In this document: piece after piece, positions 2,053 to 45,356 of the stretch
Layout of the letters: each line of letters opens with the position of its first letter
How positions within the stretch are numbered: the first letter of the stretch is position 1
Source: a virus
Lineage: Duplodnaviria; Caudoviricetes
DNA: 63,201 nt
IMG/VR virus record: IMGVR_UViG_3300022562_002172
Location: 1-63,201 of that record
Reading direction: 5' to 3' (one strand)
Position numbers and translations under genes: made by a program
Notes under the pieces: model-generated
Told to the model about the DNA's origin: nothing
Database searches by the model: none
What the model saw: only the letters and a program-made list of their open reading frames with translations

Positions 2053-2500
2053 GTACGTGATCGAGCTGAGCACCGGCGAGACCGTGCTCGTGTCGGAGCT
2101 CGATCCCGGGAGGGTCCCGTCCCTCTCCGACCCGGCCGTCGTGGAGGCCGCTTCCCCTGTCCTCGATCGGTGCGCCAAAATGCCCCGAGCCGCCCTCGAG
2201 GCCGCCAAGATGGGGCACTCGAAGCACTTCGAGGAGCTGATGTCGACGCCGCCCATCGGTGCCCTCATGAAGCTCGAGCGGCACCTGTGCGCGGAGCGCA
2301 GGGAGTGCGCGATGGCCGGACACGGCTGTACAACTAGGAACGTGGTCCGCCGCGGCCCTCCGGGCCGCTTCCCAGTGTGCTGGGAGTACGAGCCCCCGGA
2401 CGAGACTGACCCGTCCGTCGCCTTCGCTGCGCGCGACCTCGCCGGGTGCGTGGTCCTGGCGTGGAGGGCCGGAAGGATTGCTGTGATCGTCGATGGGTGA
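2027..2500 (+). CDS. Hypothetical protein
   Basis: 157-aa ORF in operon, several Cys. Confidence 0.65.
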   Translation: MPSTIYPIEYVIELSTGETVLVSELDPGRVPSLSDPAVVEAASPVLDRCAKMPRAALEAAKMGHSKHFEELMSTPPIGALMKLERHLCAERRECAMAGHGCTTRNVVRRGPPGRFPVCWEYEPPDETDPSVAFAARDLAGCVVLAWRAGRIAVIVDG

Positions 2501-2864
2501 CCCGGGAGCTCATCCGTACCGTCGCCCATGGACCACTCGGGTTCTTGACGACCTTATCTTCGCTTCCGGCCGAAACGACACCGCCGGCATGCAGTTTCGG
2601 ATGAGCCTTCGGGACTACGCCGACCTCCGCAAATTCAGTAGGGACGTCCTTGATTTTGAGGTGGACCGCGTCCATATTCAAGAAGGGTGTATGGCCCACA
2701 TTTATGGGATCCCAATCTTCGTGAGGAAGAGCGTACCGAACGGCCTCATCACCCTCTTCGACTCGGAGGACCGAGATCTCGCCCACATTATCGAGGACGG
2801 CGAGCTTCATTCCGGAGAGTGCAGGGATCCGATGTGTCTGATCAAGTCCGTGATGCTGACCTAG
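2493..2864 (+). CDS. Capsid-fragment-like protein with IKSVMLT tail
   Basis: MSLRDYADLRKFSRDVLD...G.MAHIYGIPIFVRKSVPNG recalls the central part of large-phage HK97-fold capsid proteins; H...C....C before tail. Confidence 0.6.
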   Translation: MGDPGAHPYRRPWTTRVLDDLIFASGRNDTAGMQFRMSLRDYADLRKFSRDVLDFEVDRVHIQEGCMAHIYGIPIFVRKSVPNGLITLFDSEDRDLAHIIEDGELHSGECRDPMCLIKSVMLT

Positions 2865-2884
2865 TCCGTTTCAGTACGGACTGT

Positions 2885-4009
2885 TTATCCAGAGTTCTTC
2901 TTGAGCTCGTCCAGAAGCTCGTCCAGAAGCTTCTGACCCCGCGCCGTCCTGATGCGGGGGAGGTCGACGCTCACCGCGACGTGCAGGTCCCCGCGCCTCT
3001 TAGTCATGGCCCCGACCAGGCCCGCGCCGGGGACCGTCACGACCGTCTTTCCCGCCTGGACTCCCCCCTCGATGTCGATGTTCACCCTGGACCCATCCAG
3101 GGTCGGGACTGACACCGTCCCGCCCCTCAGGGCCACGGACAGAGGGATCACGTGCTCCGTGTAGAGGTCCGCCCCCTCACGGGCGAACCTGTCATGCTGC
3201 GCGACCCGCACCGTCACGTAGAGGTCGCCCGGCGCCCGCCCGTCCCCGGAGGATCCCATCCCGGCGAGCCTGAGTCTTTGCCCGTCTTCAATTCCGACGG
3301 GGATCCTAACCTTCACCTGCCTCTCGGAGGCCACACGCCCGGCCCCGCGGCACGCCGGACATGCGACGAGCGGGGCAGACCCGCTCCCGAAACACGCGGG
3401 GCACTTCCTGACCCTCTCCCCGATCCCGATCCTGAAGTCGAGCACCTTGCCGCTGCCGGAGCATGAGCCGCACGGGATGGTCCTGGAGCCCTTCGCGCAC
3501 CGCGTCCCGCGGCATTCCTGGCACAGGACCTTCACCTTCGACGCCGAAGATATCTCCTTCACGCACCCGGAAGCGACTTCTTCGAGGGTCACGGACACCT
3601 CGGTCTCAACGTCCTCCCCGGGGGTCCCGGCCGGGCCGTCGTCGTCAACCCACGTGTGCTCGGTCTTCGGACGCTCCCTCTGGCGTCGGCGTCCAGGACC
3701 TGGGAATCCGACGTGCCTGAGAAAGTCGTCCAGGTCTTCGGGGGAGTACGCCTGCTTCGGGTCGTACGTCCTCTTGCCCCAGCTGGTCCTCGGTCTCAGG
3801 GACTCGAGGTCGTACATCTCCCTCCGCTGCGGGTCGATCAGGACCTCGTAGGCCTTCGTGGCCTCGATGAACCTCGCCTCAGCCCCCTTGTCGCCCTGGT
3901 TCTTGTCCGGGTGGCTCTCCAGGACGACTTTCCTGTACGCCTTCTTAATGGCGTCCGCGTCCGCGTCCGACGGGACGCCCAGGACCTCGTACAGGCTTCT
4001 GTCTGACAC
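2885..4009 (-). CDS. dnaJ: Molecular chaperone DnaJ
   Basis: J domain (YEVLGV, HPD), four CxxCxGxG-type repeats, C-terminal domain (GDLYV); GTG start after GTAACGT-N5. Confidence 0.93.
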   Translation of the reverse strand: MSDRSLYEVLGVPSDADADAIKKAYRKVVLESHPDKNQGDKGAEARFIEATKAYEVLIDPQRREMYDLESLRPRTSWGKRTYDPKQAYSPEDLDDFLRHVGFPGPGRRRQRERPKTEHTWVDDDGPAGTPGEDVETEVSVTLEEVASGCVKEISSASKVKVLCQECRGTRCAKGSRTIPCGSCSGSGKVLDFRIGIGERVRKCPACFGSGSAPLVACPACRGAGRVASERQVKVRIPVGIEDGQRLRLAGMGSSGDGRAPGDLYVTVRVAQHDRFAREGADLYTEHVIPLSVALRGGTVSVPTLDGSRVNIDIEGGVQAGKTVVTVPGAGLVGAMTKRRGDLHVAVSVDLPRIRTARGQKLLDELLDELKKNSG

Positions 4010-4017
4010 CGGGGACG

Positions 4018-4305
4018 TTACGCCTCCGCCGGCGCGACCTCCGCGGTGTTGTCGCCCCGCATTGCCTCGATGCTCTTCGTCCCGGACGCCCACATGATCC
4101 CCTGGACGAACCCGAGCCACCGCATTGCCTTCTCCGTCCTGCCGGCGGCGACGTGGTCCCGGATCTGCCGGCACATCCATCGCGCGTGGCTGAGCATGGA
4201 CTCCCTTCCGCTCGGAGGGAACCCGTCCCCCTGGTGCTCAGCCGGATAGCTGACCAGCTCCGACTCGTACTTCGCTGCGACCGCCAGAATTTGTTCGTTC
4301 GTCAT
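4018..4305 (-). CDS. Hypothetical phage protein (paralog of 37168-37449)
   Basis: H..WMCRQI...KAMRWLGFVQG..W..G motif shared with 37168-37449. Confidence 0.75.
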   Translation of the reverse strand: MTNEQILAVAAKYESELVSYPAEHQGDGFPPSGRESMLSHARWMCRQIRDHVAAGRTEKAMRWLGFVQGIMWASGTKSIEAMRGDNTAEVAPAEA

Positions 4306-4350
4306 TCCCGTCCTTACACCGGGAGGACCCTGGTTGTAAGGTCACCCGGC

Positions 4351-7233
4351 ATGCTTCAGCTCCGCCAGATGGACGACCGTGTCAGCGTTCAGCGCGATTG
4401 GTTCAAGGACTATAGCTTTCACCTCGTGGAGAGGGTCAACCAGGTCTCGAAGCTCGTCGATATCTGCGTCCAGCGCGGGATCTGCTCTCTGGACACGGAG
4501 ACGACCGGAGTGGACAACCGCGTCTATCCGGACGAGTACTTCGAGGACGGGCGCGAGACGCGTCACGGGATCAGGACTGTCGATAGGATAGTTGGCCTCT
4601 GCATCTCGTTCGACGGTCAGAACGGATATTACCTCCCCCTGTCGCACGACCCGGAGGACGCTGGGAACCTGCCGTGGGATCCGGTCTGGGATGAGATCAC
4701 GAGACTCGTCAACAACTGCCGGATCATCTTCCACAACATGAAGTTCGACGCCGAGTTCCTCTATCCGGTCACCGGGAAGGAAAACTGGGGCTTGGACGAG
4801 TTCGAGGACACGATGCTCCTGTCCAAGGTCATCAGTCCCCTGAAGAGCAACCCGGCGGGCCTGAAGCAGCGCGCCAAGATCGACTTTGGCGTCGACATGG
4901 TCGAGCTCGACGAGCTCTTCACCGCCGAGAAGAAGGACCAGCTCAAGCGGGAGAAGGTCCGATACAACTTCGCCCTCTTGCATCCGAAGGAGGGCAAGGA
5001 GTATGGGGCCTCCGACGGGATCTTCACGTACAAGGAGTGGTTCCACCACTCCCCGAAGCTCGCCGAGGGGGACCAGCGAATCTACAACCTCGAGAAGGCG
5101 TTCTGCAACGTCATCCGGAAGATGGAGCGGAACCGAGTCCACGTCGACGTGGATCGCGTAAACCAGCTCGCCGTCGAGTGCAGGTCCGAGATGACCAAGA
5201 CCGGCGACATCATCCGGGAGTTCATCGAGAAGCGCACGGGCCAAACGGGTAAGTGGCTGACCCTCAACGTCGGATCTCCGGCCCAGCTCTCAGCCGCCCT
5301 GTTCACTGACCCTGAAGGCATGAAGCTCAAGCCCACGCCCGAGATGGTGAACGAGGGCGACGGCGGATGGGGGACGAACTACGACGGCGGCGGCGGGAGC
5401 GACGATGACGACGATGACGACGACCCCGGGAAGCCGAAGACGTACTCCTTGAAGGACGAGGTCCTCAAGTCGCTTCACCGATACTACGGCAAGGACCTGT
5501 CCGTCCAGAGGGACGGCGTGGTCGACAAGGACGGGAAGCCGAAGCGCGAGAGCATCTTTGAGCTCGTGCTCGAGTATCGGCATTACGACAAGATGAAGGG
5601 CTCGTACGTCGAGAAGCTCCAGAAGTCGCACGACAAATACGGGGACGTCAGGCCGTCGTTCAACCAGATGGGCACCGACACCGCGCGCCTCTCGTGCAAG
5701 GCGGGCAAGATCGAGGAGGGGTACTCCGGGGTTAACTTCCAGGGAATCCCGCGCGACTCCGACGATGACAAGCCCGAGCTCTTCAAGCAGGTCAGGACCG
5801 TGATCATTCCACGGCCCGGCTGGTTCCTCGTGAAGCTCGACTACTCGGGCGAGGAGCTCCGCGTCGTCACGAACATGTCCGGTGATCCGATCTGGACCGA
5901 GTCCTTCCTGCACGGGGACGGGGACGTGCACTCGATCACGACGCGGACCCTGTACGGGCGGCAGAACATCACGAAGGGCGAGCGCAACATCGGGAAGCGC
6001 TGCAACTTCGCGTTCATCTACGGCGGGGGCGCCGGTGCCATCTCAAGGAACATCGGGTGCACCATCGAGGATGGCCAACGCCATATGGACAACCTCAGGC
6101 GGGACGTCCCCGTCCTGATGGGCTATGTCGACCACCAGAAGAAGTTCGCCAACAAATACAAGTGCATCTACACGGCCTTCGGCCGAAAGATGCCGATTCC
6201 GACCATCGACTCTCCGATCCGGGCAATCAAGAAGAAGGCCGAACGCTGCGCTATCAACTACACGATCCAGGCCACCTCGGCGGACGTCCTGAAGTTCGCC
6301 ATGTGTCTGATCGACAAGAAGATCCGGGAGCTCGGGTGGGAGGACAGGGTCAGGTACGTGCTGACCGTCCACGACGAGATCGTGTTCGAGATCCGTCCCG
6401 AGTACCTGATGGACGTAATCCCGCTCCTCAACGAGTGGATGGTCCTGCCGTGGAGGCTCCCGAAGGCGCACGGACGGCCATGGGTCGTCCCTCTCGAGAC
6501 TGAGCCCGGCATCGACGTCCACTGGAGGGCTAGGTTCGACTTCTTTCAGATGACGCGCGGGACCAGGGCGAAGCCAGAGGACATTGGCCCGGACGGGACG
6601 TATAAGGGCAAGCTCAAGGACGGGCAGCTCTTCGAAAACGGCCGCATCTATCAGGAGATCCCGGACTTTCTCGACACCCATGTGTGGCGGTTGCCCCTGG
6701 ACAAGAACGGGGAGCCGATCGTTGAAGGGGGGCCCACGGCCCCCCTCCCCGCCCCGGAGCCGGAGCCGGAGCCGGAGCCGGAGGTCATCGTGGCAAAGGC
6801 GGAGGAACCTGCGCTTTCGGAAGGGACGAAAAAGGTGCCGGAGCCGGTGCCGGAGCCGGTCGCGAAATCCGAGGAAACGAACATGGACCCTGGAGACATC
6901 GACATCGACATCGACATCGTCGGGACTGAGGGGTTCCCCGACGTCCAGGTTGACGCAGGCCCAGTCGAGGAGAGTCCGCCGCCGAAGATTATGGTCAAGG
7001 CTAAAGAGGCCCGTCCTGTTGGCCCGGACGAGAAGGTGCTGCGGTGGGTGTTCAAGGACGTCCCGTCGGACCAGTCGATGCGAAAGCTCCTGGCTGTGTG
7101 CATCCTGGCAGAGGGTCAGGTCCCGCTCCGGATAGTCAACAAGAAGGACCAAGTCCTCATCCCGGAGGGCGAGGGGGTCCGCGTCCATCCGGACCGCTTC
7201 CAGTATCTGGCGTCCCTGTTTGGCCTGGGCTGA
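4351..7233 (+). CDS. polA: Family A DNA polymerase with 3'-5' exonuclease and Pro/Glu-rich C-terminal extension
   Basis: ExoI DTETTG, ExoII HNMKFD, TARLS, motif A DYSGEELR, motif B KRCNFAFIYG, motif C VHDEI. Confidence 0.95.
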   Translation: MLQLRQMDDRVSVQRDWFKDYSFHLVERVNQVSKLVDICVQRGICSLDTETTGVDNRVYPDEYFEDGRETRHGIRTVDRIVGLCISFDGQNGYYLPLSHDPEDAGNLPWDPVWDEITRLVNNCRIIFHNMKFDAEFLYPVTGKENWGLDEFEDTMLLSKVISPLKSNPAGLKQRAKIDFGVDMVELDELFTAEKKDQLKREKVRYNFALLHPKEGKEYGASDGIFTYKEWFHHSPKLAEGDQRIYNLEKAFCNVIRKMERNRVHVDVDRVNQLAVECRSEMTKTGDIIREFIEKRTGQTGKWLTLNVGSPAQLSAALFTDPEGMKLKPTPEMVNEGDGGWGTNYDGGGGSDDDDDDDDPGKPKTYSLKDEVLKSLHRYYGKDLSVQRDGVVDKDGKPKRESIFELVLEYRHYDKMKGSYVEKLQKSHDKYGDVRPSFNQMGTDTARLSCKAGKIEEGYSGVNFQGIPRDSDDDKPELFKQVRTVIIPRPGWFLVKLDYSGEELRVVTNMSGDPIWTESFLHGDGDVHSITTRTLYGRQNITKGERNIGKRCNFAFIYGGGAGAISRNIGCTIEDGQRHMDNLRRDVPVLMGYVDHQKKFANKYKCIYTAFGRKMPIPTIDSPIRAIKKKAERCAINYTIQATSADVLKFAMCLIDKKIRELGWEDRVRYVLTVHDEIVFEIRPEYLMDVIPLLNEWMVLPWRLPKAHGRPWVVPLETEPGIDVHWRARFDFFQMTRGTRAKPEDIGPDGTYKGKLKDGQLFENGRIYQEIPDFLDTHVWRLPLDKNGEPIVEGGPTAPLPAPEPEPEPEPEVIVAKAEEPALSEGTKKVPEPVPEPVAKSEETNMDPGDIDIDIDIVGTEGFPDVQVDAGPVEESPPPKIMVKAKEARPVGPDEKVLRWVFKDVPSDQSMRKLLAVCILAEGQVPLRIVNKKDQVLIPEGEGVRVHPDRFQYLASLFGLG
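6754..6783 (+). repeat. (CCGGAG)5 tandem repeat encoding a PE linker
   Basis: Direct reading; encodes PEPEPEPEPE in the polymerase tail. Confidence 0.8.
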
Positions 7234-7468: not shown

Positions 7469-7499
7469 GCTGGACGGTACCCGGGTGTAACATTGTCGG

Positions 7500-19380: not shown

Positions 19381-19667
19381 ACGGGGCGGAGGACGAGGTC
19401 CGAGGCCGAGACGCGGACGTCCTGCACCTCGGACCCCTCATCCTCCGCCACATACCAGATGCCGTCCCGGAGCTCCGGCGTCCCGGAGCCGAACCTCACG
19501 CCCCTGTCCTGGCTGAGGCCGACCCACCTCCCGAGCCCTGGGTGAAAGAGGCCGAAGTCGTCCCTGAAGTCGGCCATGAAGGCCGGGGTTCCGTCCTCTA
19601 CCCTCTCCATGGTGAGCAGGACCAAGTACGAATCCGGCGGGACGATGCCCCACTCTATCGGTCTCAC
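19377..19667 (-). CDS. Hypothetical protein
   Basis: GTAGCGT-N5-GTG start; ATGA overlap. Confidence 0.6.
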   Translation of the reverse strand: MRPIEWGIVPPDSYLVLLTMERVEDGTPAFMADFRDDFGLFHPGLGRWVGLSQDRGVRFGSGTPELRDGIWYVAEDEGSEVQDVRVSASDLVLRPV

Positions 19668-19709
19668 GCGTCACGCTACTTCGATCGTTTATCTGATCTG
19701 CACGGTGCG

Positions 19710-20291
19710 ATGACCCCGTCCAAAGTGTCAGCCGAGCTCCTCCGCGTCGCAGCATCCCTGGACGGAGGTGACGTGAGCCGAAGTGGGACTGAGGCCGCCC
19801 TCGCGGCGGTCCTGGACGGCATCGGGAGGACGGCGCAGGGGTCTCAGGAGGGCGAGCTTGCCGCCCCCGTTGGTCAAGTCATAGCGCACCTGAACCAGTG
19901 GCTCACCGCGAAGTACCGCATCGACGCCTCCTACCGGAGCTATGCGGACCGCGTGAAGGGACCCTGGCGCGACGCGCTCGTCGACCACTGGTATACGCAC
20001 GCCGAGGAGGAGCGCAAGCAGGCCTACGACCTGGCGATGAAGGTCGTGGCTCTCGGAGGAGACCCGATCCAGACCGTCATCGATGTGCCCGCCTCTCCGG
20101 CCTCTCTCGGAGCGTTCTGCGCGCAGCTCGCGCAGCTCGAGCTCGCAGCCATCGAGAACGGCAGGGTCGCAATTCAGCTCGCCGGCGAGAACGCTCCGCT
20201 CCGCGTCTTGGCGGAACAGATCATCTACACGGACGCCCAGCACCTGGACGACATCCGGAGGATGTGCGCCAACTTCGACGTGGCGATGTGA
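19710..20291 (+). CDS. Ferritin/bacterioferritin-like protein with N-terminal extension
   Basis: HAEEERKQAYDLAMKVVALGGDP, ELAAI, DAQHLD four-helix pattern. Confidence 0.75.
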   Translation: MTPSKVSAELLRVAASLDGGDVSRSGTEAALAAVLDGIGRTAQGSQEGELAAPVGQVIAHLNQWLTAKYRIDASYRSYADRVKGPWRDALVDHWYTHAEEERKQAYDLAMKVVALGGDPIQTVIDVPASPASLGAFCAQLAQLELAAIENGRVAIQLAGENAPLRVLAEQIIYTDAQHLDDIRRMCANFDVAM

Positions 20292-24836: not shown

Positions 24837-25724
24837 CTACTTGAGCAGGTCGTCGTACGACGGCTGGAGCTTGGGCGTGGACGCCCCGGCTTCCGGCGAG
24901 GAGAGGGCGTGCGACGCCCCGCCGCCGAGCTTCTCGGCGAGCTTCTCGGCGTTCATCTGGAAGCCGAGCTCCTTCTTGACGTGCTTGTATGCGCGCAGGC
25001 CCTGGTCGAGAACCCAGGCGCGGATCTCCGGGTCCGTGTCGTCACGGGCCCAGAACGCGGAGAGGCCGTTCTCGATGCGCTGCTTCTGGAACTTCGGGTC
25101 GCCGTCGAGGGTGACCTTCATGTCGATCACGGGCATCGAGTTCGCCCGCGCGTCGATGTAGACACCCTCGACCTGTTTGAACTTCTTGGCCGACATGCGG
25201 TACGTCTCGATGTGGGTGTACCGGCGCTTCTTGAGCAGCTCGGGATCGACCTGCCCCTGCTCGTCGATCGGGTAGCGCAGGATGATCGTGGCCACGGTCT
25301 GGTCCGCGTCGCCCATCTGCTTGCAGCAGAGCGCGGGCTTGATGAGCGTGGTCCCCTGCCACTGGCTGAGGCAGCGGACCGAGCCGACGCCGTCTTTGTA
25401 GTGGGTGAACGCGAACGAAAAGCGGGGCTGCTTGATGTCGAGCCTGTCGATCTCGGTCAGCTCTTCGACCGGCTTCTTGAGATTCTCCGCCAGCTTGGCG
25501 TCGATCTTCGTGACGTACTCCGCCTTCTCCTCGTCGGTCAGCGGCTCGCCCTTCTCGCGGGCCTTGGCCGCGAGGACGACTTCGGCGAAAGTCTTGAAGG
25601 CGATGATGGAGACGCGGTCCATATGCCCGCTCTTCTCCTGCTTGAAGCGCTCGATGCCCTGCGGCTTGATGACCTTTGCGTCGTCCAGACCGAAATCCAG
25701 AACGTTCATGTCTTCGTTGCTCAT
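24837..25724 (-). CDS. Putative single-stranded DNA-binding protein (gp32-like)
   Basis: Position in recombination cluster, H/C/CC ligands, flexible tail ending YDDLLK; inference. Confidence 0.5.
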   Translation of the reverse strand: MSNEDMNVLDFGLDDAKVIKPQGIERFKQEKSGHMDRVSIIAFKTFAEVVLAAKAREKGEPLTDEEKAEYVTKIDAKLAENLKKPVEELTEIDRLDIKQPRFSFAFTHYKDGVGSVRCLSQWQGTTLIKPALCCKQMGDADQTVATIILRYPIDEQGQVDPELLKKRRYTHIETYRMSAKKFKQVEGVYIDARANSMPVIDMKVTLDGDPKFQKQRIENGLSAFWARDDTDPEIRAWVLDQGLRAYKHVKKELGFQMNAEKLAEKLGGGASHALSSPEAGASTPKLQPSYDDLLK

Positions 25725-25835: not shown

Positions 25836-26645
25836 CTACTTCAGGAGGTCGTCGTAGGACATGCCGGTCGTGACCGGCGCCACGTCTTCCTGGGGCTTGG
25901 TGGGGGTCGGCCCGGTCGTCGTCCCGGGCGCCGGCCTGTTTGCGTAGAAGTTCACGATCTGCCTGGCATGGCTCGGGTTCCTCGGCTCCGGAAGGTCTTC
26001 GGGCCGCTTCTCCGGGTCCAGCAAGTCCTCGGGATTGATCTCCTCGGCACGGACTGGCGGCGGCAGTCCTCCCGGGATCGTCCTGTCCTCGCGGGACTGC
26101 GGCTTCACGTACCCTCCATCGCCGCTCTCCCACCCGGTCCGGTCGTCCTTCACGAGCTGACGCTGGAGCTTGATGTCCTGGTTCGTGTGCCTCAGGTCGT
26201 CGTATTTGGCCTTGATGATCCTGATGGTCCCGTCCAGATCCTGGAGCTCGACCTTGAACCTGGCCAGGTTCTCATGCTCGACCTTGAGCATGGACGTGGC
26301 GAGGGCCCTCCTGTCCTGGGCCGCTGACTGTTGACGGACGAGCGGATCGTCCGCGAGGAGCCCGGACATCTTGAGCTCGAGGTCCAGCTCGAAGGCCTTC
26401 TCCGCCTTCTTCAGGTTCTTCTCATACCGCCTCGTGATCTGCAGGTAGTACTGGGTCCTGTTCAGGAACTGCCTACACTGCGCGATCCGGGATTGAAGGT
26501 AACGGGCCCCGAGCTCCGGAAGGGTCGGGTCCTCCTCCAGCTTCACCTCGAACTCCGATATCTCCGTCAGGATCGAGTCGAGCTTCTCCGGATCGAGATA
26601 TCCGATGACCTCGCTCGGGCTCCCGATCAGCTCCTTGTCGCTCAC
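25836..26645 (-). CDS. Coiled-coil protein, possible recombination mediator
   Basis: Long helical region; ends MSYDDLLK. Confidence 0.6.
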   Translation of the reverse strand: MSDKELIGSPSEVIGYLDPEKLDSILTEISEFEVKLEEDPTLPELGARYLQSRIAQCRQFLNRTQYYLQITRRYEKNLKKAEKAFELDLELKMSGLLADDPLVRQQSAAQDRRALATSMLKVEHENLARFKVELQDLDGTIRIIKAKYDDLRHTNQDIKLQRQLVKDDRTGWESGDGGYVKPQSREDRTIPGGLPPPVRAEEINPEDLLDPEKRPEDLPEPRNPSHARQIVNFYANRPAPGTTTGPTPTKPQEDVAPVTTGMSYDDLLK

Positions 26646-27013
26646 GCCCGCTTCTCCCACGGAGCCGGGTCCGGTACTCCGACGAGCGTGACGAAGGTAT
26701 GGATCTGGTCGGGGATGAAGACGGACTGTGGCACGTCCCACACCCCCGGAGCCAGCTTCATCAGCCCCCACCTGTCTTGCCGGATGCCGTCCGGATCCAC
26801 GTCGATGAAGTGTCGCTGCCGTTTCTTTCCGCGCTGCACGGAGAAGGCGAGCTGCCACTTCCCCTCCTCGTCCCTCCAGACGTGTCCGAGGGCGGGACCC
26901 GTTGGCGATCCGGCGACCTCCGGGACGGACCTCGCCCAGCGGGCGTGCACCCTCAGGACGACGGAGGCGTCGCCTGGGTCTTCCTTCGCGAGGTCCCCGG
27001 CACGCCCGGTCAT
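26642..27013 (-). CDS. Hypothetical protein
   Basis: ORF coupled to neighbours. Confidence 0.6.
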   Translation of the reverse strand: MTGRAGDLAKEDPGDASVVLRVHARWARSVPEVAGSPTGPALGHVWRDEEGKWQLAFSVQRGKKRQRHFIDVDPDGIRQDRWGLMKLAPGVWDVPQSVFIPDQIHTFVTLVGVPDPAPWEKRA

Positions 27014-29461: not shown

Positions 29462-29968
29462 CTACGCCTCCATCACGTCGTGCACGGTCCTCTCTGCCGC
29501 GATCCTCCGCTTCATTTCCCCTTCGAGGAGGAATCTGGCCGCAAACCAGGAAATCATGCGGACGTCCACTTTCATGTAGTGATTAGGGAGCCCGTCCCTA
29601 ACGTCCAGTTCCACGCCGCGAGTTAGGAATACATGGAACTTCCCGGAGAAGTCTCTATAAATGGCCAGCTCCGGAGTGAAGATGTGTGTCCACTTGTCCT
29701 GCACGGTGGTCAGGAGGTCCAGGTACACAACTCCATTCGAGTTCGCTCTCACCATGAAACCCCATCCGTATGAATAGGACCCGGGGCGCATATCCTTCAC
29801 GAGAGAAGGAGGCCGCTTCAGAACGACCGGCAGCTCGTCCGACCTGAGTCGAATGAGTCTCGAGAGGACCTTCGACATGACGTCGATGGCCTTCCCGAAC
29901 CAGAAATACGTGGACATAAGGGCCAACCCGATCGCGATTCCGACAATCGCGTTTGTTATGGTTGTCAT
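29462..29968 (-). CDS. Membrane-anchored protein with VHDVMEA tail
   Basis: N-terminal TM helix; C-terminal tail motif. Confidence 0.7.
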   Translation of the reverse strand: MTTITNAIVGIAIGLALMSTYFWFGKAIDVMSKVLSRLIRLRSDELPVVLKRPPSLVKDMRPGSYSYGWGFMVRANSNGVVYLDLLTTVQDKWTHIFTPELAIYRDFSGKFHVFLTRGVELDVRDGLPNHYMKVDVRMISWFAARFLLEGEMKRRIAAERTVHDVMEA

Positions 29969-33734: not shown

Positions 33735-34892
33735 CTATTCCGAACCGGAGTGTTCGAGGACGAGGCGGGACCTGTCCTTCAGCTTCTTCAGGGCCCTGGC
33801 CTCTAGCTGCCGAATCCTCTCCCTGGACAGGTCGTACTTATCGGCTATCTGCTGGAGCGTGAGGGGCTCTGACCCGCCGAGGGCGAACCTCCACCGGATG
33901 ATCCTCGACTCGATGGGTGTCAGGACGGTCAGGAGGACATCCAGGTCGTTGGATAGCTCCTTCTTCCAGAGCTCCTCCGACGGGCTTTCCGCGGACGGGT
34001 CCGGGAGGAAAGAAACGAAGGGCTGGGCCTCATCCAGCTCGGTGACGGGGGCGTCCAGAGAAAAGGAGTGCTTCATCCTGGCTTGCCTGATCAATCTGAC
34101 CTTGTCCTCGGTGATCCCGAGGGCCTCCGCCGCCTCTTTGTCGTCCAGCTTCTCCCCGGTTTTGGCGAAGTGGACCCTCTCCAGCCGGACCAGCTTCGAG
34201 GAGGCCTCGGACATGTGAACCGGTATGCGGACGATCCTGTCCAAGTCCGCGAGGCCCCTCTTCATGGCCTGACGGATCCACCAGACGGCGTACGTTGAGA
34301 AACGGACGTCTCGCCCGCGGTCGAACTTCTCGACCGCCCGCATGAGGCCCATGTTCCCCTCCTGTATCAAGTCCGAGGACGTCATGCTGGTCCCGTGCGT
34401 CGAATAACGGTGGGCGAACATGACAACGAGCCGTAGGTTCGCCACCACTATCCGGTTCTTCTTGGAGCTCACCGAGCTCGCTGCCAACCTGACCCGTGCG
34501 GACCACCTCCTTCCCGCCGGGTCCTCCTGGGCCTCGGAGAGGGAAGACACCTCGTCGGCCGTCACGTCCATGACTTTGGCCACGGCCCTCGCCCCGACGA
34601 CAGACGCGACGAGGGACTCGAGGCTCCTTCTGTCTCCGGGCTTGAAGGCCGCGAACGCGGCCTTCATTTGCTCGAAGGCCGGGCTCTCATCGTTCCCGGA
34701 CGCGACGGCCGACGCGGACATCACGGCCGACGGCCTTGAGAACAGCTCAAGGAGGAGCTTCGTCTCCGCCCTCTCGAGGGCCATGAACGCGGACTCTTCT
34801 TCCTCCCTGGAGAGAAGGGAGAACGCAGCCATCTCCTTGAAGTAACCGGAGAGCCTCACTCCGGCATGGTTATTTCTTGCTCTGTGACTCAT
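33735..34892 (-). CDS. Group 1/2 sigma-70 factor (RpoD/RpoS-like)
   Basis: LLSREEE, ANLRLVV, DLIQEGNMGLMRAVEKFD, FSTYAVWWIRQ, RIPVH, SRERIRQLE. Confidence 0.95.
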   Translation of the reverse strand: MSHRARNNHAGVRLSGYFKEMAAFSLLSREEEESAFMALERAETKLLLELFSRPSAVMSASAVASGNDESPAFEQMKAAFAAFKPGDRRSLESLVASVVGARAVAKVMDVTADEVSSLSEAQEDPAGRRWSARVRLAASSVSSKKNRIVVANLRLVVMFAHRYSTHGTSMTSSDLIQEGNMGLMRAVEKFDRGRDVRFSTYAVWWIRQAMKRGLADLDRIVRIPVHMSEASSKLVRLERVHFAKTGEKLDDKEAAEALGITEDKVRLIRQARMKHSFSLDAPVTELDEAQPFVSFLPDPSAESPSEELWKKELSNDLDVLLTVLTPIESRIIRWRFALGGSEPLTLQQIADKYDLSRERIRQLEARALKKLKDRSRLVLEHSGSE

Positions 34893-36948: not shown

Positions 36949-36949
36949 G

Positions 36950-38756: not shown

Positions 38757-38757
38757 C

Positions 38758-39027: not shown

Positions 39028-39051
39028 CTGGCCGGGACAAGTTACACCGGA

Positions 39052-39960: not shown

Positions 39961-40034
39961 TCCGTGGAGGCGCGGCATAGGAGCTCGACGCAGGCGGCCC
40001 CGACGGAGGACGTCCTCCGTCGGGGCTCCACAGC

Positions 40035-40622
40035 CTAGTTCAGGACGTAGTCCATCCACTCCTCGGGGACCGTGCCGGGGTCCAGCATCGGGGACGAGGC
40101 CGGGAGGGACTTCGGCTTCCTGACGTGGTCGGGTCCGTTAATGAGCCGCATCCCCGCCTGGTCCGGGGTCCTGTCGTCCTTCCTCGAGTTGCAGCCCGAA
40201 CACGCCATGACGATGTTCTCCCAGATCGTCTTCCCTCCCTGGGCGCGGGGGACGACGTGGTCGAACGTCAGCTGGGACATCGGCAGCCTCTTGCCGCAGT
40301 ACTGGCACGTGAACTTATCACGCGCGCAGACGTTGACCTTGGAGAACTTGGCCGACTGCCGGCGGACGTACACCCCGTCCCGAAGCTGGACGACCGCGGG
40401 GACGCGGATCGTAACCGTCTCCGCGTCCGTGCTGAGCACGTGGCGGAGCGACTCCCTGAGGGCCGGGAATTGCTTCATGGCTTCACGGCCGATCACGGCC
40501 AGAATCTCCGGATAGTCCTTGACCACCAGGTATTTGCCAAGGCACATGTTCGTGACGGCCGTCTTCCATCCGACGACCTCGTGCGGCATCCCGTAGTTCA
40601 GGACAAGCGTCTGCGCGTACAT
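40035..40622 (-). CDS. HNH endonuclease (McrA-like)
   Basis: RD.FTCQYCG, TFDHVVPR..GG...WENIVMAC..CN..K. Confidence 0.92.
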   Translation of the reverse strand: MYAQTLVLNYGMPHEVVGWKTAVTNMCLGKYLVVKDYPEILAVIGREAMKQFPALRESLRHVLSTDAETVTIRVPAVVQLRDGVYVRRQSAKFSKVNVCARDKFTCQYCGKRLPMSQLTFDHVVPRAQGGKTIWENIVMACSGCNSRKDDRTPDQAGMRLINGPDHVRKPKSLPASSPMLDPGTVPEEWMDYVLN

Positions 40623-40768
40623 GATCTCACCTACCTTCCTTACCTTTCTCTATGTTTCATTTACTGGACACAGGCCCGCAATCCCGGCTCGGCCGGGCGG
40701 GCAAGTCTAGATACACGTCCGCCCGGCCTTGGGGGGGGGCCAGGCGGGATCCCCGTCCGCTTTGGCGT

Positions 40769-41125
40769 CTACGGGAGGCCGGGGTCCGGGTCTCCGAGCT
40801 CGATCAAACGCTTCCGGAAAGCACGCGCCTTATTGATGAGCTCCGTGCTCCGCGCCTGGGTGGCAGAGACCGAGGCATTGAGCGCCCTGTTCTCCGAAAG
40901 GAGGAGATACAGGACTTCCCGCATCCCGAGCTTCTCGACGTCGAACCGTCCGTCACCAGGGGACTTGGCCATCCTGGACCGAATCTCCGAGGACGCGCCA
41001 CTGACCTTCTCCTTGTCTTCACCCGTGATCACGACGAGGACGTTGGTCCCGTCGAAGTGGTGGAAGAGCAGCCTCTCCTCGGGGCCGCCGGAGAATCTTG
41101 AGAGGTCCCTGTCTTTCGGATCCAT
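40769..41125 (-). CDS. Hypothetical protein
   Basis: GTAGAGT-N6-ATG. Confidence 0.6.
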   Translation of the reverse strand: MDPKDRDLSRFSGGPEERLLFHHFDGTNVLVVITGEDKEKVSGASSEIRSRMAKSPGDGRFDVEKLGMREVLYLLLSENRALNASVSATQARSTELINKARAFRKRLIELGDPDPGLP

Positions 41126-41140
41126 GGCGCGACTCTACAG

Positions 41141-42112
41141 TCACCGGCGGCGCTTCAGCCATACGAACGAGATGATCAGGATCAGGGAGAAGAGGAGCCA
41201 GAACCAGGCGTACCCGTGCTCCCACTTCGTCTCCGGCATGCTCCGGAAGTTCATGCCGTAAATCGCGGCCAGGAGCGTGAGAGGTACGAACAGGACATTC
41301 ACTGCCGTCATCGCCTTAATGCTGGCGTTCATATGGTAGCTGACGATGGAGACATGGAAGTTGACGGAGTCTGAGATGACCTGCCTGTCCGTGACGAGGT
41401 CGTCTTCCAGGCGCTCGAGGACCATGATCATGTTGTCCAGGAATGGCTTCGTGTTCACGCTCACGAACAGGCCGGCCCGGCTTGCGAGGTGGGTCAACGT
41501 GTTCCTCGCCGTGTGGTCTATCTCCCTCATGACGAGGAAGTCCGTGTGAAGCTTCGAGGCTTCGACGATAATGCTCTCGTCCGCGGTGATCACCGCCCGG
41601 TCCAGGACCTTCAACTTCTCCTGCATGACCCTGTGCACGCTCAGATAGCCGTCGGTCACGTGGTGAAACATCTCGTACACGAGGAAGACCGCCGCCTTCG
41701 ACGTCGACCTGAAGTCCGTCACGTACCGGTCGACCAGCTTCTCGACTAGCTTGGACCTGCTCTCGTGGCAGGAGACGAGGAACCTCGCGCCCAGCAGGCA
41801 TCGGACCTTCTTCGGGGAGAAGTCCCCGGTCTCCAACCACTCGTCGAACGGGATGTGTCCTACGTCGAACCTGTAGAGGTTCCCCGGAAAGCTGATCACG
41901 TCCGAGACCGCGTCGCTTTGGAGGGACTGGATCGCTTCTGAGTCCAGGCCGAGCTTCTCGAGGCCGAGCGGGCCGAGTGAGTCGGAGCCGAGTACGTCTA
42001 TCCAGTATATCTTGTTCCCGACGTCTTGTATCACCACGTCCTCGAGCCCGACCTCTCGTCGGACTCCGGTGTCATAGTCGTGTTCAAACACAAGGACTGG
42101 GCTCGTCCCCAT
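41141..42112 (-). CDS. corA: CorA-family Mg2+/Co2+ transporter
   Basis: WIDV, PLT...IYGMNF..MPE..W..GY, two C-terminal TM helices. Confidence 0.9.
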   Translation of the reverse strand: MGTSPVLVFEHDYDTGVRREVGLEDVVIQDVGNKIYWIDVLGSDSLGPLGLEKLGLDSEAIQSLQSDAVSDVISFPGNLYRFDVGHIPFDEWLETGDFSPKKVRCLLGARFLVSCHESRSKLVEKLVDRYVTDFRSTSKAAVFLVYEMFHHVTDGYLSVHRVMQEKLKVLDRAVITADESIIVEASKLHTDFLVMREIDHTARNTLTHLASRAGLFVSVNTKPFLDNMIMVLERLEDDLVTDRQVISDSVNFHVSIVSYHMNASIKAMTAVNVLFVPLTLLAAIYGMNFRSMPETKWEHGYAWFWLLFSLILIISFVWLKRRR

Positions 42113-42119
42113 CGAGGCC

Positions 42120-42767
42120 TCAGGCGATGTCGGTCGCGTTCTGGATGGTGCAGACCGCGCGGAACTCTGTGCTCTGATTCTCGCCGCGGACGTACACGAC
42201 ACTGGAGGTCGTGTCGAAAAGCTCCAGGATCGTCGACGGTTTCAGCTTGTACTCCGGCCCCGACTCGCTGATCGAGAGGAACATGTTCACGCCGCCGAGG
42301 TTCTCGAAGATGAACTGGTGGCAGTTCTTCGGGAGTTGTATCTCGAGCGATTCTCCCATGGACGCGCCCGCGGGCGCGTCCCCCGCGAGATGGACCGGAG
42401 GGTGTCCTGATGAGGCGTAAGGCAGGACGATGTGGACAGGCCCGGGGTTCGAGAAGGACGCGGCCCCGAGGTCCTTCGTCTTGACCCTGAGGTAGATGGG
42501 CTTCGAGTCATCGACCCCCGGGTAGTCGGCGGGGTTCCACACGAACCTGACCTTCCCCCGAAAGCTGTCGTTGAACGAGAAGTCGCGGACGGTCTTTGAC
42601 CTCGTCCCGCCGGCGGACATGGTGGCTAGCGTGGTAAATGGCCCGTTGAAACTGTCCGACACCTCGTACTGCCAGAAGGCCACGGGTGGGCTCTTCAGAG
42701 GGTCAATGTCGATCAGAAGATCGACCACGTTCTGGCGCCGCCTCGTCAGGCTGAACTGTCTCGACAT
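42120..42767 (-). CDS. Hypothetical beta-rich protein, possibly virion-associated
   Basis: 215-aa ORF. Confidence 0.65.
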   Translation of the reverse strand: MSRQFSLTRRRQNVVDLLIDIDPLKSPPVAFWQYEVSDSFNGPFTTLATMSAGGTRSKTVRDFSFNDSFRGKVRFVWNPADYPGVDDSKPIYLRVKTKDLGAASFSNPGPVHIVLPYASSGHPPVHLAGDAPAGASMGESLEIQLPKNCHQFIFENLGGVNMFLSISESGPEYKLKPSTILELFDTTSSVVYVRGENQSTEFRAVCTIQNATDIA

Positions 42768-42785
42768 GTCCGTACGCTACCTTCG

Positions 42786-42868
42786 TGGGCCGGGCGGGAG
42801 TCGAACCCGCAGTGGCGTTCGCCGCCGGATTTTAAATCCGGCCCCTTTGCCTGTTTGGATACCGGCCC
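42786..42868 (-). tRNA. tRNA-Leu(UAA), long variable arm, no encoded CCA
   Basis: GGGCCGG acceptor, CCGGA-TTTAAAA-TCCGG anticodon arm, GGTTCGACTCC T arm. Confidence 0.9.
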
Positions 42869-42869
42869 G

Positions 42870-43193
42870 TCAGGACTCCATGACCTGACGGATCTTCTCC
42901 TGTCTACAGGCCTCCGGGTCCTTCGTGTGTTGGTCTTCTTCCCACAGCCCGCCCCCGCATTCTTCGCACTTGAACGGCGGCGTGAGCATGGACTTCCTGG
43001 GCATGGACTGGTAGTCGATGTTGTGGCGTAACGGCTCCACCCCCTGCTGGAAGTGGCGTCGTACGACGGGGAAAACGAAGTTCATGAGGTCCCTTCCCTG
43101 TGCCGCGTCAGGGGGGTCTCTGTCTTCTACGAGAGCTTTCCCCTGCTCGATGAGCCTGGCGATCCTCTCCTTAAGGTCGTCAGGCTTGCTCAT
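42870..43193 (-). CDS. Small protein with Zn module and IRQVMES tail
   Basis: CEECG...H......C then IRQVMES. Confidence 0.7.
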   Translation of the reverse strand: MSKPDDLKERIARLIEQGKALVEDRDPPDAAQGRDLMNFVFPVVRRHFQQGVEPLRHNIDYQSMPRKSMLTPPFKCEECGGGLWEEDQHTKDPEACRQEKIRQVMES

Positions 43194-43317
43194 CCGGCTT
43201 ATCCTGGAGCTTGCGTCGCTCCCTCGGAGGGGGTTTCCCCATGCCGTTTGATTTCCACGGCTTGCACATGAGACACCCGGCCCTACTCCTCTTTGGCCTT
43301 TTTCGCTTGTGGTTCAT
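43180..43317 (-). CDS. Small basic CxxC peptide (not in ORF track)
   Basis: MNHKRKRPKRSRAGCLMCKPWKSNG... Confidence 0.55.
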   Translation of the reverse strand: MNHKRKRPKRSRAGCLMCKPWKSNGMGKPPPRERRKLQDKPDEQA

Positions 43318-43455
43318 GGTCCGGGTGATGAGTTAAAGGGTCGATACTACGCCCGCGAGGTTCACGACTAGCACGCTCTCTCGTTGTCCAGGGATCAGTG
43401 AAGCTGACCTCCACGGCCTAAGACACATTTTCGTGCCGGACGACCCCGTCGAACT

Positions 43456-43968
43456 TTACGGCTGCGGATAATAGTGCCGGAACGCCGTCAAAATCTCGGA
43501 CGTCGCTCTCTCCGTCAGCGGCTCGAGATTTCGTCCCGGATCCGGTCCGAGACGGTCCCAGGGCCGGCCAGTGACCATGAGCGACATCGCCGGCCCCCCG
43601 AGAGGCATCACGTAGTGCCAAGCGTCGGGATCGGGCATCTCGTAAACCGTTCCCGGGCCGATCAAGACGGTCATGGCCTCCGGCGGGGGCTCCTGGCCGG
43701 GCCCGAAGCCGACGGCCATCTCGTACGAGCCGGTGACAATCCGCATCGCGCTCGGCCATGGATGTGGATGGAACAGCGGGCGCTCGCAGGGATGGATGCG
43801 GTGCAGGCTCACTCTCAGGTCGTTCACTTGAGCCCAGACCCTCTCCACTCGCGGGGGCTCGTAATCTATGTCCAGGGAATGCCAGAGGCCGGCCCGACGC
43901 AGGAGGCCCGGGAGCATCTCTTCCACTCGGAAGAGTTTCTGGATCATCTCCCCCTTCTGCACGCCCAT
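43456..43968 (-). CDS. Cupin-fold protein
   Basis: LHRI...HPHPW......GSYE...WH.V. Confidence 0.7.
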   Translation of the reverse strand: MGVQKGEMIQKLFRVEEMLPGLLRRAGLWHSLDIDYEPPRVERVWAQVNDLRVSLHRIHPCERPLFHPHPWPSAMRIVTGSYEMAVGFGPGQEPPPEAMTVLIGPGTVYEMPDPDAWHYVMPLGGPAMSLMVTGRPWDRLGPDPGRNLEPLTERATSEILTAFRHYYPQP

Positions 43969-44055
43969 GTGGAAGGTTACGCCGGAGGCCCTCCCTGCGC
44001 GGCATCGAAACCCTTCCGGTTCCTCGTCGGTCTCGGCCTGAGCTCCCTGGGTTGA

Positions 44056-44331
44056 CTACTGATCACCCTGCCATCCCTCGAGCCTGATGAACCTGTGGAA
44101 AGTACAGGAGCCGACGGTGCAGACGTAGCTCGGATGAACCGTCCCGTCGGGATCGACGCGATGGACGGTTGACACCATGCGCGTCACATGTCCGTTCGGG
44201 CATGTGATGAGGGCGAGGTTCTTGAAGCCGCGGTGCGGGTCCAGGTAGTCCCAGCTCAGGGGAGGGGGCTGGTGGTCGAGCTTCCCGCGCGGGACGAGCT
44301 CGTGCCTGTAGAGGACGACTTTCCTGGTCAA
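44056..44331 (-). CDS. Small Cys/His hypothetical protein
   Basis: CPNGH...TVHPS..C....C.FH. Confidence 0.6.
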   Translation of the reverse strand: MTRKVVLYRHELVPRGKLDHQPPPLSWDYLDPHRGFKNLALITCPNGHVTRMVSTVHRVDPDGTVHPSYVCTVGSCTFHRFIRLEGWQGDQ

Positions 44332-44513
44332 AGGTCTCGCGCGTTCCGGATCAGCACGGGGATCCCCTCCCATTCCGCCGGGACGGCGCGCGGAGGCCGC
44401 GCGGCACGGACGTATACGTAGAGACAGGACGGGCCGGCCTCAACCGAGACGGTCGAAGAGAAACCGCGCAGGTGCTCGAGGAGCCGAGCGGCCGCTTCTT
44501 CCAGGTTTTCCAT
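44328..44513 (-). CDS. Small hypothetical protein
   Basis: 61-aa ORF immediately after tmRNA. Confidence 0.5.
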   Translation of the reverse strand: MENLEEAAARLLEHLRGFSSTVSVEAGPSCLYVYVRAARPPRAVPAEWEGIPVLIRNARDL

Positions 44514-44516
44514 CAG

Positions 44517-44876
44517 TGGAGGCGCGGGGAATCGAACCCCGGTCCGCGCAGTTCCGTCAAAGTCCTCTTCACGTGCGTAGCCGGCGTAGCTGCCCCGGCT
44601 CAGATGACGGCGGGCGTCATAACGTCCCCGCCTGGAGGCTCTTGCTTCTCTCGCCCTAGGGCCGCTGACCTCGCTAAATTCCCCAGAGCCAGCCCGTGTG
44701 GGTTTATGCCGTCCGGGTTACTCGGGCTCCTGTCCCAGCCGACAGCTCACGCGGCGATGCCGACGTCAGCGATTGCGTTGTCGTTCGCAGTTGGTACGGC
44801 TCGCTTTGTCAAGGCAGATCGAGCGCTGCCTGCACGCAGACTTCTCCTTTCCCGCACGTCGAAACCGATCGCCCCC
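44517..44876 (-). ncRNA. ssrA: tmRNA, tag ANDNAIADVGIAA
   Basis: 5' GGGGGCGATCGGTTTCGAC; 3' GGTTCGATTCCCCGCGCCTCCA with G3-U70; tag ORF at 44788-44747. Confidence 0.95.
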
Positions 44877-44910
44877 GTACAATCCTTGCAGGGACTTCCG
44901 GACCCTACAA

Positions 44911-45108
44911 TCAGGACTCCATCACCTCGACGACGCGGTGGGCGTCGTCCCCAACCTCCTCAGCGTGCTTGGAGAGGTCCGTCATTTCGACGCCACAGAC
45001 CGGGCACACGCGCGGGATGACGGAGAGCTTCGACGCGCCGCGCGGGTTTATTATCCCGATCCCGATGCGTTCGTGAGCGGCAAATCCGATCTTCCCATTG
45101 ACGCTCAC
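44911..45108 (-). CDS. Capsid C-terminal fragment-like peptide plus C2H2 module and VVEVMES tail
   Basis: KIGFAAHERIGIGIINPRG then CPVCG...L..H........H.VVEVMES. Confidence 0.7.
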   Translation of the reverse strand: MSVNGKIGFAAHERIGIGIINPRGASKLSVIPRVCPVCGVEMTDLSKHAEEVGDDAHRVVEVMES

Positions 45109-45356
45109 GACTCCATCACCTCGACGACCGTGTGCTCCACGTCGTTAAACGCGGACGCGTGCGTGGCCAACTGACTCGACCAAACGGTCTCACCGCAGGC
45201 TGGACATATGACCCATCCGCCGTTGTAGTCCTTGGTCGTGCGCAGGGGCTGGGCCATGGACTGAGCGAGCTTCTGCCTCCCCTGCGCCGAGTTTATGAAG
45301 TTGGAGATCAGCTTTTCTTTGACCTCCGGGGAGAGCCCATTAGTTTGCCTCATCAT
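45105..45356 (-). CDS. Capsid N-terminal fragment-like peptide plus C2H2 module and VVEVMES tail
   Basis: KEKLISNFINSAQGRQKLAQSMAQPLRTTKDY then CPACG...L..H........H.VVEVMES. Confidence 0.7.
   Translation of the reverse strand: MMRQTNGLSPEVKEKLISNFINSAQGRQKLAQSMAQPLRTTKDYNGGWVICPACGETVWSSQLATHASAFNDVEHTVVEVMES

Follow-up and report, generated by a model that had tools for sequence, protein, structure and literature searches.

Four small genes of a very large phage resemble pieces of an HK97-fold major capsid protein joined to Cys/His modules

Capsid-like pieces and their genomic setting

The window analysed here is the whole of the IMG/VR virus record IMGVR_UViG_3300022562_002172 (63,201 bp), whose estimated completeness of about 15% indicates a piece of a very large phage genome. 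Sequence comparisons show four intact genes in this window, each apparently encoding a piece of an HK97-fold major capsid protein (MCP) joined to a Cys/His module, with the N-arm represented twice and the A-domain and the C-terminal strand once each. A fixed hydrophobic helix closes the module (..Phi-Phi-x-x-[VI]-M-x-[S/T]-COOH, the C-terminal tail below), and none of the pieces is able to build a capsid. A sequence-only reading had brought these genes together under the interval 2493-45356, which is merely the union of four separate genes. Judged from their sequences, the small modular proteins may mimic MCP surfaces, a proposal to which we give slightly less than an even chance.

A hidden Markov model (HMM) built from 48 non-redundant phage G-type HK97 MCPs was searched against the 1281 six-frame open reading frames (ORFs) of at least 25 aa in the window. 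The three top-ranked ORFs were the middle piece (2493-2864, plus strand; E 3.3e-15, MCP positions 160-237), the N-piece (45105-45356, minus strand; E 2.1e-10, positions 4-40), and the C-piece (44911-45108, minus strand; E 4.2e-4, positions 264-288). The fourth- and fifth-ranked ORFs were non-significant (E 1.4 and 6.9), and HMM positions 49-159 and 238-263 had no significant match in any window ORF. The three ORFs correspond, without overlap and in colinear order, to parts of one HK97 MCP family (Bacillus phage G gp27, PDB 6wkk; LR745208.1), which bears out the claim of the sequence-only reading that they are separate pieces of one capsid family, and the large-phage family to which it had likened them is indeed the phage G type. 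Each single ORF holds one MCP segment, and the complete HK97 fold (N-arm, E-loop, P-domain with spine helix, and A-domain in a single chain of about 283-293 aa) is absent from every ORF.

Database-wide comparisons point to the same family. In tblastn searches of 50,697 phage records, the N-piece matched the uncultured 485-kb phage LR745208.1 (E 3e-6, 53% identity) and also the annotated phage G major head protein gp27 (E 3e-3), the middle piece matched the same LR745208.1 gene 350-590 bp further along (E 3e-6, 35%), and the C-piece matched the 3' end of this gene at E 0.8 only. The product of the LR745208.1 gene is an MCP of 291 aa, which has a near-identical counterpart, P0032, whose match to the solved capsid protein of phage G (6wkk_A) reaches E 4e-61. 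Among PDB sequences, 6wkk_A was the top match of the N-piece (E 8.9e-5) and was found with the family profile of the middle piece (E 1.3e-12), and 6wkk was not matched by the C-piece. Comparison by hhalign with the MCP alignment gave a probability of 99.5% (E 3e-22) for the middle-piece family and of 87% (E 3.9e-6) for the C-piece, the latter over MCP residues 267-292 of 293, and the N-piece matched PHROG 2522 at E 1e-4. Significant alignments to capsid family models were thus obtained for all three ORFs, as the sequence-only reading had proposed.

The pieces resemble the canonical MCP clade more than they resemble phage G or the divergent MCP of another huge-phage record (G006), with identities to the canonical clade of 22/33 for the N-piece, 32/79 for the middle piece, and 14/24 for the C-piece (41-67%). 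Pairwise identity among 28 MCPs of this clade, each pair being less than 93% identical, is 72-93% (mean 85%). An AlphaFold model of the MCP alignment was unusable, with a predicted local distance difference test score (pLDDT) of 39, and the mapping of the pieces rests on the alignment to 6wkk and on the A-domain model described below. What the window proteins have in common with phage G gp27 (6wkk) and the huge-phage clade is therefore the homology of the three pieces and the A-domain fold of the middle protein. They differ in that they lack the E-loop, the spine helix, and most of the P-domain and carry an added zinc-type module, in that their identity (41-67%) falls short of the 72% or more shared by true members of the clade, and in that their genes lie outside a head module.

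All four ORFs are free of frameshifts, and a codon model trained on 19 long window genes scores each of them best in its annotated frame; their third-position GC is 0.71-0.82, in a window with a GC content of about 63%. Frameshifted, decaying remnants had been named as the outcome that would speak against a function, and no such decay is seen: codon usage is native, starts and stops overlap those of adjacent genes, the middle piece belongs to a conserved family, and the fourth ORF (42870-43193) has orthologues.

Genes for replication, recombination, and transcription in the window include DNA polymerase A (PolA), RecA, RuvB, an SbcC-like ATPase, and a sigma-70 factor. Dam methylase, a GIY-YIG protein, ferritin-, VanW-, and Band-7-type proteins, an AAA ATPase (59714-61939), DnaJ, a DnaG-type zinc ribbon, NUDIX, TerC, and CorA are also encoded. 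No head, tail, or packaging genes were found within the 63 kb, and no full-length capsid gene was found in the record by PHROG models 2522 and 544 (major head proteins). With the DnaG-type zinc ribbon, DnaJ, PolA, NUDIX, TerC, CorA, transfer-messenger RNA (tmRNA), and transfer RNA (tRNA) genes as neighbours, the piece genes sit in a replication/host-takeover region, outside any head-morphogenesis module. Because of this location and the lack of a head module, the earlier suggestion that the proteins serve as capsid decoys gains some plausibility. An early-type region would also suit exclusion genes, and thus a rival explanation that we consider unlikely, namely interference with or control of capsid assembly. 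The pieces would then co-assemble with or cap MCP capsomers, or bind scaffold, and would either act as poisons on the capsids of relatives infecting the same cell (superinfection exclusion) or delay the assembly of the phage itself until the tail-marked proteins are removed.

A family of stand-alone A-domain proteins

The middle gene (2493-2864, plus strand) encodes a protein of 123 aa, in which the A-domain (encoded at about 2520-2801) corresponds to MCP 160-237 plus the terminal strand, and is followed by the knuckle His98/His106/Cys110/Cys115 and an 8-residue end, LIKSVMLT (knuckle and end at 2784-2861). It is the final gene of a plus-strand operon; its start codon (ATG) and the stop codon of the ORF before it overlap, and there is a hairpin just beyond the end of the gene. 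The protein had no hit in Pfam-A, and its best PHROG match, 544 'major head protein', was non-significant (E 0.22). An HMMER search of 1.84 billion representatives returned 85 proteins at E<=1e-3, each standing for one cluster at 50% identity. Thirty of these, including the window protein, are 87-145 aa long and are matched over the whole query with knuckle and tail, only three have the MCP C-terminal motif, and the remaining 52 consist mainly of short A-domain proteins that end differently (coiled-coil, A-domain only, tandem doubles), together with a few fragments. The small A-domain proteins are thus far more diverse than the MCP (85 clusters at 50% identity versus MCPs that share at least 72% pairwise). 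Family members are unnamed in their sources and are found on contigs of up to 399 kb. Two further arrangements were observed among the representatives: four proteins of 251-291 aa (P0006, P0008, P0012, and P0085) have two tandem A-domain-like stretches, and about 15 others (about 165-190 aa) combine an A-domain with a long, helical, Lys/Glu-rich tail behind it.

In an alignment of 31 sequences, whose members share 25-51% identity with the window protein, both knuckle cysteines (C110 and C115) are present in every member, and conservation reaches at least 90% at R46, R50, D51, and G65. At least four Cys/His residues lie within the 33 residues up to the second knuckle Cys in 29 of the 31 members. 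Exactly eight residues follow this Cys in all 31 (29 counted directly, and P0004 and P0070, which have an extra Cys in the tail, by inspection), with Phi-Phi-x-x-V-M-x-[S/T/A/G] as the typical end and VM at positions -4/-3 in 21 of 30 family members.

The AlphaFold model of the middle protein, made with the family alignment, has a pLDDT of 91.2 and a predicted template modelling score of 0.84. A Foldseek search of the PDB with this model gave a phage capsid protein as the top match (E 8e-4), and all 50 matches listed by VIA-align were HK97-fold capsids or encapsulins (Z up to 9.5), with model residues 5-103 aligned to the A-domain part, for example to residues 249-383 of HK97 gp5. The middle protein is accordingly modelled as a stand-alone HK97 A-domain that includes a terminal strand, with a zinc-type knuckle at the point at which the MCP chain would terminate. 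Within the region shared with the MCP, 50 columns of the MCP alignment show conservation of at least 95%; at 13 of these, which cluster in the block M..DYAD.RKFGR..D.LD..G..G, 70% or more of the family has the MCP residue, and the window protein itself retains 25 of the 50. In a fold search of BFVD, small uncharacterised proteins of cultured jumbo phages ranked high (Erwinia phage vB_EamM_Y3 twice, and Pseudomonas phages Noxifer and PaBG; E 2.6e-4 to 4e-2) and are leads only, and the ESM Atlas likewise gave capsid-related leads only, all under the trust level. The T4 vertex protein gp24, which is among the structural matches listed, is likewise the product of a duplicated HK97-fold capsid gene with a separate role. 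However, gp24 has the full-length fold and builds pentons, whereas the window proteins are sub-domain pieces of 65-123 aa.

The family profile was also compared with ten huge-phage records that carry this MCP. A full-length MCP was found in all ten, and an extra short A-domain ORF was found in three, namely G002 (about 31 kb from the MCP gene) and G006 and G007, which hold the same ORF (about 79 kb away in G006); phage G gave no second match. In an alignment-based scan, 78 of 80 loci were full-length MCPs and the other two were one short A-domain ORF. The ORF of G006 and G007 (L062:9677-10267) encodes 196 aa, with an N-terminal helical extension, an A-domain, and no knuckle; in G006 it adjoins a gene in which HD-type His/Asp motifs were noticed by eye, and the MCP frame at the distance given above is 309 aa long. 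We also considered whether a small paralogue tracks the MCP of its own genome, and this was not seen in the sole testable pair, that of G006.

These results bear on two of the rival explanations. Giant capsids hold many minor proteins, and an HK97 A-domain fold would be in keeping with minor virion proteins that fill special sites in a very large capsid, for instance near the portal or as plugs in the middle of capsomers. But the genes lie far from any head gene in the window, the short A-domain ORFs of G006 and G002 are about 79 and 31 kb away from the MCP gene, and phage G, whose capsid has been solved, has no second match, so that we regard such a role as very improbable. For interference with assembly, on the other hand, it may be argued that the family retains the most conserved block of the MCP A-domain and that short A-domain ORFs with coiled-coil extensions or tandem pairs suggest oligomers. 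Against this, the conservation of the MCP (at least 72% pairwise) implies that a poison would also strike the MCP of the phage itself if this belongs to the same clade, and the genes are absent from most relatives.

N-arm and C-terminal-strand genes and their modules

The N-piece gene (45105-45356, minus strand) encodes 83 aa, with an MCP-like segment at 45222-45332 that corresponds to MCP residues 4-40, followed at 45108-45209 by a finger of the form CxxC-x11-H-x8-H and the end VVEVMES. The C-piece gene (44911-45108, minus strand) encodes 65 aa, with an MCP-like segment at 45016-45093 (MCP 267-292/293) and, at 44914-45009, a CxxC-x9-H-x8-H finger and the same VVEVMES end. The ATG of the N-piece overlaps the end of the NUDIX gene, and the GTG start of the C-piece overlaps the stop of the N-piece (GTGA), with GGAG at -8 within the preceding MES codons. 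The fingers and tails of the two pieces are paralogous (50% identity over 34 aa, E 3e-9), and in both, eight residues follow the last ligand, as in the middle family. The two genes are adjacent, co-oriented, and ordered as in the parent MCP gene, and the C-piece reaches the natural C-terminus of the MCP before its finger starts. The simplest origin that we infer from this arrangement is an MCP copy with a C-terminal finger, in which residues of about 43-263 were replaced by a second finger cassette; alternatively, a tandem duplication may have been followed by complementary deletions.

The adjacency, colinearity, and parental order of the N- and C-pieces are also what would be expected if this pair were wreckage: an MCP gene, either duplicated or acquired, would recently have been disrupted by duplication of a finger cassette, and the two ORFs would still be open by chance while heading for loss. 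The only moderate divergence from canonical MCPs (22/33 and 14/24 identities) and the failure of the searches run to find relatives of the N-piece elsewhere would agree with such a history. However, both pieces are in frame and have complete fingers with all four ligands and a tail, their codon usage is native, their translation is coupled through the GTGA overlap with GGAG at -8, and the same architecture survives in the paralogue at 42870-43193 and its orthologues. Wreckage is therefore quite unlikely in our view, more so than interference with assembly. The latter gains from these two pieces, since the N-arm and the C-terminal strand touch neighbours or scaffold in HK97-fold capsids.

Several technical and mechanistic possibilities were examined for this locus. 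The region 42700-45500 was traced to two DNA runs of one marine-sediment study, with no RNA dataset listed. In a second sample of the study, contigs span the tmRNA/C-piece and N/C/NUDIX junctions with 0-1 differences, which are too few for a ratio of non-synonymous to synonymous changes, and misassembly was rejected because the junctions are spanned by independent contigs. One contig (run X1) joins 42892 to 45105 and omits 2212 bp at the common VMES-tail codons, its shorter side being 25 letters, and this may be either a repeat-driven effect of the assembly graph or recombination between tail cassettes. Rejoining of a split gene by split inteins or trans-splicing was rejected, as the module follows every piece, including the C-piece that ends at the natural MCP C-terminus, there is no match to an intein/Hint family, and the pieces do not sum to a whole MCP. 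Directly beyond the C-piece gene, a tmRNA gene (44514-44876, minus strand; Rfam 88.6 bits; tag peptide ANDNAIADVGIAA) begins after 34 nt.

The fourth ORF (42870-43193, minus strand; 107 aa) is a divergent N-arm paralogue, with a CxxC..H..C finger and a VMES end at 42873-42968. The sequence-only reading had compared it with a segment of T4 gp23. This resemblance did not hold up: no Pfam or PHROG family matches at E<=1, hhalign against the MCP alignment gives a probability of 1.2%, and no capsid gene was found by tblastn of the phage records. Its segment EPLRHNIDYQSMPRKSML (42981-43040) has MCP 31-52 as best match, which is non-significant. The ORF is, however, colinear end to end with the N-piece (AQGR..PLR..DY..CxxCG..W..VMES) at 25% identity (E 0.006 in a single comparison), and we read it from these shared motifs as a probable older paralogue of the N-piece. 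It has two orthologues (P0097 and P0098), with 66-67% identity by BLASTP and 69-70% in the alignment, which retain FPVVRR, EPLRHNIDYQ..PRKSLL, the CxxCGGG.W..H..C finger, and the MES end. Since the orthologues keep the segment, the finger, and the tail, the design of N-arm, finger, and tail has been kept through substantial divergence. A gene for tRNA-Leu(UAA) begins one base past the stop of this ORF.

Among the finger models compared with the modules of the N-piece, the C-piece, and the fourth ORF, zf_UBZ (E 0.1) and Zn_ribbon_ACC (E 0.014) were both under their cut-offs, and LYAR and optineurin finger matches had E values of 0.3-0.7. A Cys/His module and a VMES-type tail, which had been described for each gene, are present in all four, the tail being VMES in three cases and VMLT in the middle piece. 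Ends of the form [VIL]-M-x-x occur in 12 of 592 window stop-to-stop ORFs of at least 60 aa and in 14 of 7891 control ORFs from 1,017,319 bp of loci around the MCP genes of other huge phages (odds ratio 11.6, Fisher p 5e-8). In the control loci, no ORF of at least 40 aa has a [VI]ME[STA] end or the knuckle-tail pattern, and a DNA-pattern search of IMG/VR for the VVEVMES end gave 0 matches. At the DNA level, the motif RTSATGGAGWS is seen six times against 0.62 expected, in five of the six cases in frame immediately before a stop, and the tail codons also serve as the ribosome-binding site for the next gene at 45108. A DNA or RNA motif or a bare Shine-Dalgarno sequence was nevertheless rejected as the main cause, given the protein-level conservation at 25-51% identity. 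Because the motif sits in frame before stops and conservation at the protein level extends to distant members, the tail is a protein feature. We read it as the end of a short helix after the last zinc ligand with a constrained free C-terminus. The earlier description of the tail as a tag therefore stands as far as its presence is concerned, but it is no free-standing tag, for in the middle family it is the fixed-length, non-detachable end of the zinc-knuckle helix.

The distribution of the tail opens a further rival explanation, that the proteins are exapted domains with a non-capsid function. They would then be lineage-specific small zinc-finger proteins, for instance nucleic-acid-binding or regulatory ones acting in replication or transcription, with the MCP part as no more than a convenient folded or peptide scaffold gained by recombination. 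The tail is common to ten ORFs in the window, of which only four have MCP-like parts, and its strong enrichment (12/592 vs 14/7891, as above) favours this explanation. CxxC..H..H fingers often bind nucleic acids, and the middle gene is co-oriented with the primase-type zinc-ribbon gene and adjoins PolA. But the capture of three parts of one protein is improbable without selection for MCP-likeness, and conservation in the family peaks in the block shared with the MCP, so that exaptation appears to be about as unlikely as interference with assembly. A search for pieces of other phage proteins in the remaining tail-bearing ORFs had no support from PHROG or Pfam, and such an origin was rejected.

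Candidate roles and neighbouring features

In the mechanism that we propose for mimicry, the small modular proteins would be made from the replication/host-takeover region and would compete with authentic MCP for an MCP-binding partner. The likeliest partners would be host immune sensors that recognise the MCP, for which the proteins would be a decoy or sponge, and the second-likeliest would be MCP or scaffold, belonging either to a relative that co-infects the cell or to this phage, with assembly hindered or timed as a result. The zinc module may stabilise and present the piece, and the C-terminus, with its invariant length, may either act as a degron or offer a handle to a partner that the proteins share. 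A role in conflict fits because the small proteins are highly diverse whereas the MCP is almost frozen. The decoy version accounts for about half of the weight that we give to mimicry as a whole. An extended version, which is also doubtful, is that huge phages have a 'mimic kit' of pieces of the MCP, their most conserved structural protein, on zinc modules with a fixed C-terminal handle, made early and soaking up or jamming host receptors that read the MCP (Avs7/8/10-like or CapRel-like). The stand-alone A-domain family would then be the founder, to which this phage would have added the N-arm and the C-terminal strand.

Known sensors define the interface at which a decoy might act. Lit senses the Gol peptide of T4 gp23. 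Avs7/8/10 are reported to bind the penton/hexon-forming face of the MCP A-domain (10.64898/2026.01.04.697583), and CapRel SJ46 is described as an immune sensor of a capsid protein (PMC9712102). Since Avs7/8/10 are reported to bind the A-domain, an A-domain made before the late genes would be a plausible sponge. Avs7/8/10, CapRel SJ46, and Lit are host proteins, unlike the pieces, which are encoded by a phage. No phage-encoded MCP piece acting on capsid sensors turned up in the literature searches made. DSAD1 is reported to be a small phage protein that counters DSR2, a sensor triggered by a structural protein (PMC11087589); its abstract does not present it as derived from the trigger, whereas the candidate in the window is a piece of the trigger itself.

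The same anatomy fits capsid-assembly interference just as well, as a weapon against rivals or as a timing device. P4 Sid, PLE TcaP, and SaPI CpmB are also small proteins that act on HK97-fold MCPs, and the capsids concerned are among the structural matches listed for the middle protein. However, they are satellite-encoded external or internal scaffolds unrelated to the MCP in sequence, whereas the window proteins are MCP-like and encoded by a phage.

Several observations weigh against mimicry. A mimic of an immune trigger could activate the sensor as readily as block it. The MCP of the phage itself is not in the record, so that mimicry of its own capsid and of a foreign one cannot be told apart. 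A member with knuckle and tail was found in none of the ten huge-phage records with this MCP, and the genes are therefore dispensable. The C-piece is significant only in targeted searches, and its relatives were sought among phage records; the N-piece had no relatives outside this phage in the searches run. Six further tail-bearing ORFs have no likeness to phage proteins in Pfam or PHROG, and the role of the module may therefore be unrelated to capsids. Zinc binding by the modules is presumed from the pattern of residues.

The fold of the pieces is known, and their architecture and the A-domain family appear to be new. In the full-text literature covered, no stand-alone A-domain or MCP-piece genes in phages were mentioned, and supplements and surveys of huge phages may mention them. 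Phages cannot easily change their capsid proteins, which makes these proteins prime triggers of bacterial immunity. If phages respond with harmless look-alikes of parts of the trigger, such look-alikes would represent a new class of counter-defence for which the trigger itself supplies the material, and given that A-domain sensors have been described, the decoy idea is directly testable now. The genome is also a rare case in which the division of one structural gene into conserved pieces, each encoded separately, can be seen.

The other tail-bearing ORFs are scattered over the window. A small Cys-rich ORF at 247-552 (plus strand) ends in EIMES, with no MCP likeness detected. A perfect 32-nt palindrome at 535-566 (GAGATCATGGAGAGCTAG and its complement) is centred on its stop and could be a hairpin terminator or a binding site; because of this palindrome, the antisense ORF 549-1262 also reads ..EIMES. 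The ORF at 765-1217 (plus strand), which ends in EEIMEW, overlaps this antisense ORF, whose codon score is weaker, and its match to the MCP profile (HMM 120-176) is non-significant (E 1.4). The ORF at 29462-29968 (minus strand; end HDVMEA) has neither MCP likeness nor a family match. No family match was found either for a small ORF at 55946-56209 (minus strand; end YDVMCS) or for the ORF at 56170-56910/56928 (minus strand), which has a CxxC..H..H..C pattern and the end KRIMEE, with a tRNA-Arg gene just upstream. RNA genes (the tmRNA, tRNA-Leu(UAA), and tRNA-Arg) thus abut three tail-bearing genes. Between the N-arm paralogue and the tmRNA, an ORF at 43456-43968 (minus strand) has a weak match to phrog_4786 'cysteine dioxygenase' (E 0.0011). 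Scans for promoters and terminators gave no signal above shuffles.

The RNA genes of the window comprise one tmRNA and four tRNAs, plus a tRNA with anticodon UUA (49997-50070, minus strand), which would decode the stop codon TAA. Among the 84 predicted genes, TAA is the rarest stop (5, against 21 for TAG and 58 for TGA), and the MCP-piece genes use TGA or TAG. Host-like genes of the phage include those for a full-length DnaJ (2885-4180), a CorA Mg2+ channel (41141-42202), TerC (46253-47278), an SPFH/Band-7 protein (47280-48557), and a sigma-70 factor (33735-34892), all on the minus strand, and for a ferritin-like protein (19542-20291) on the plus strand. Two adjacent large ORFs without a Pfam family (24837-25724 and 25836-26858, both on the minus strand) terminate in ..YDDLLK and are likely tandem paralogues that share a C-terminal motif of their own.

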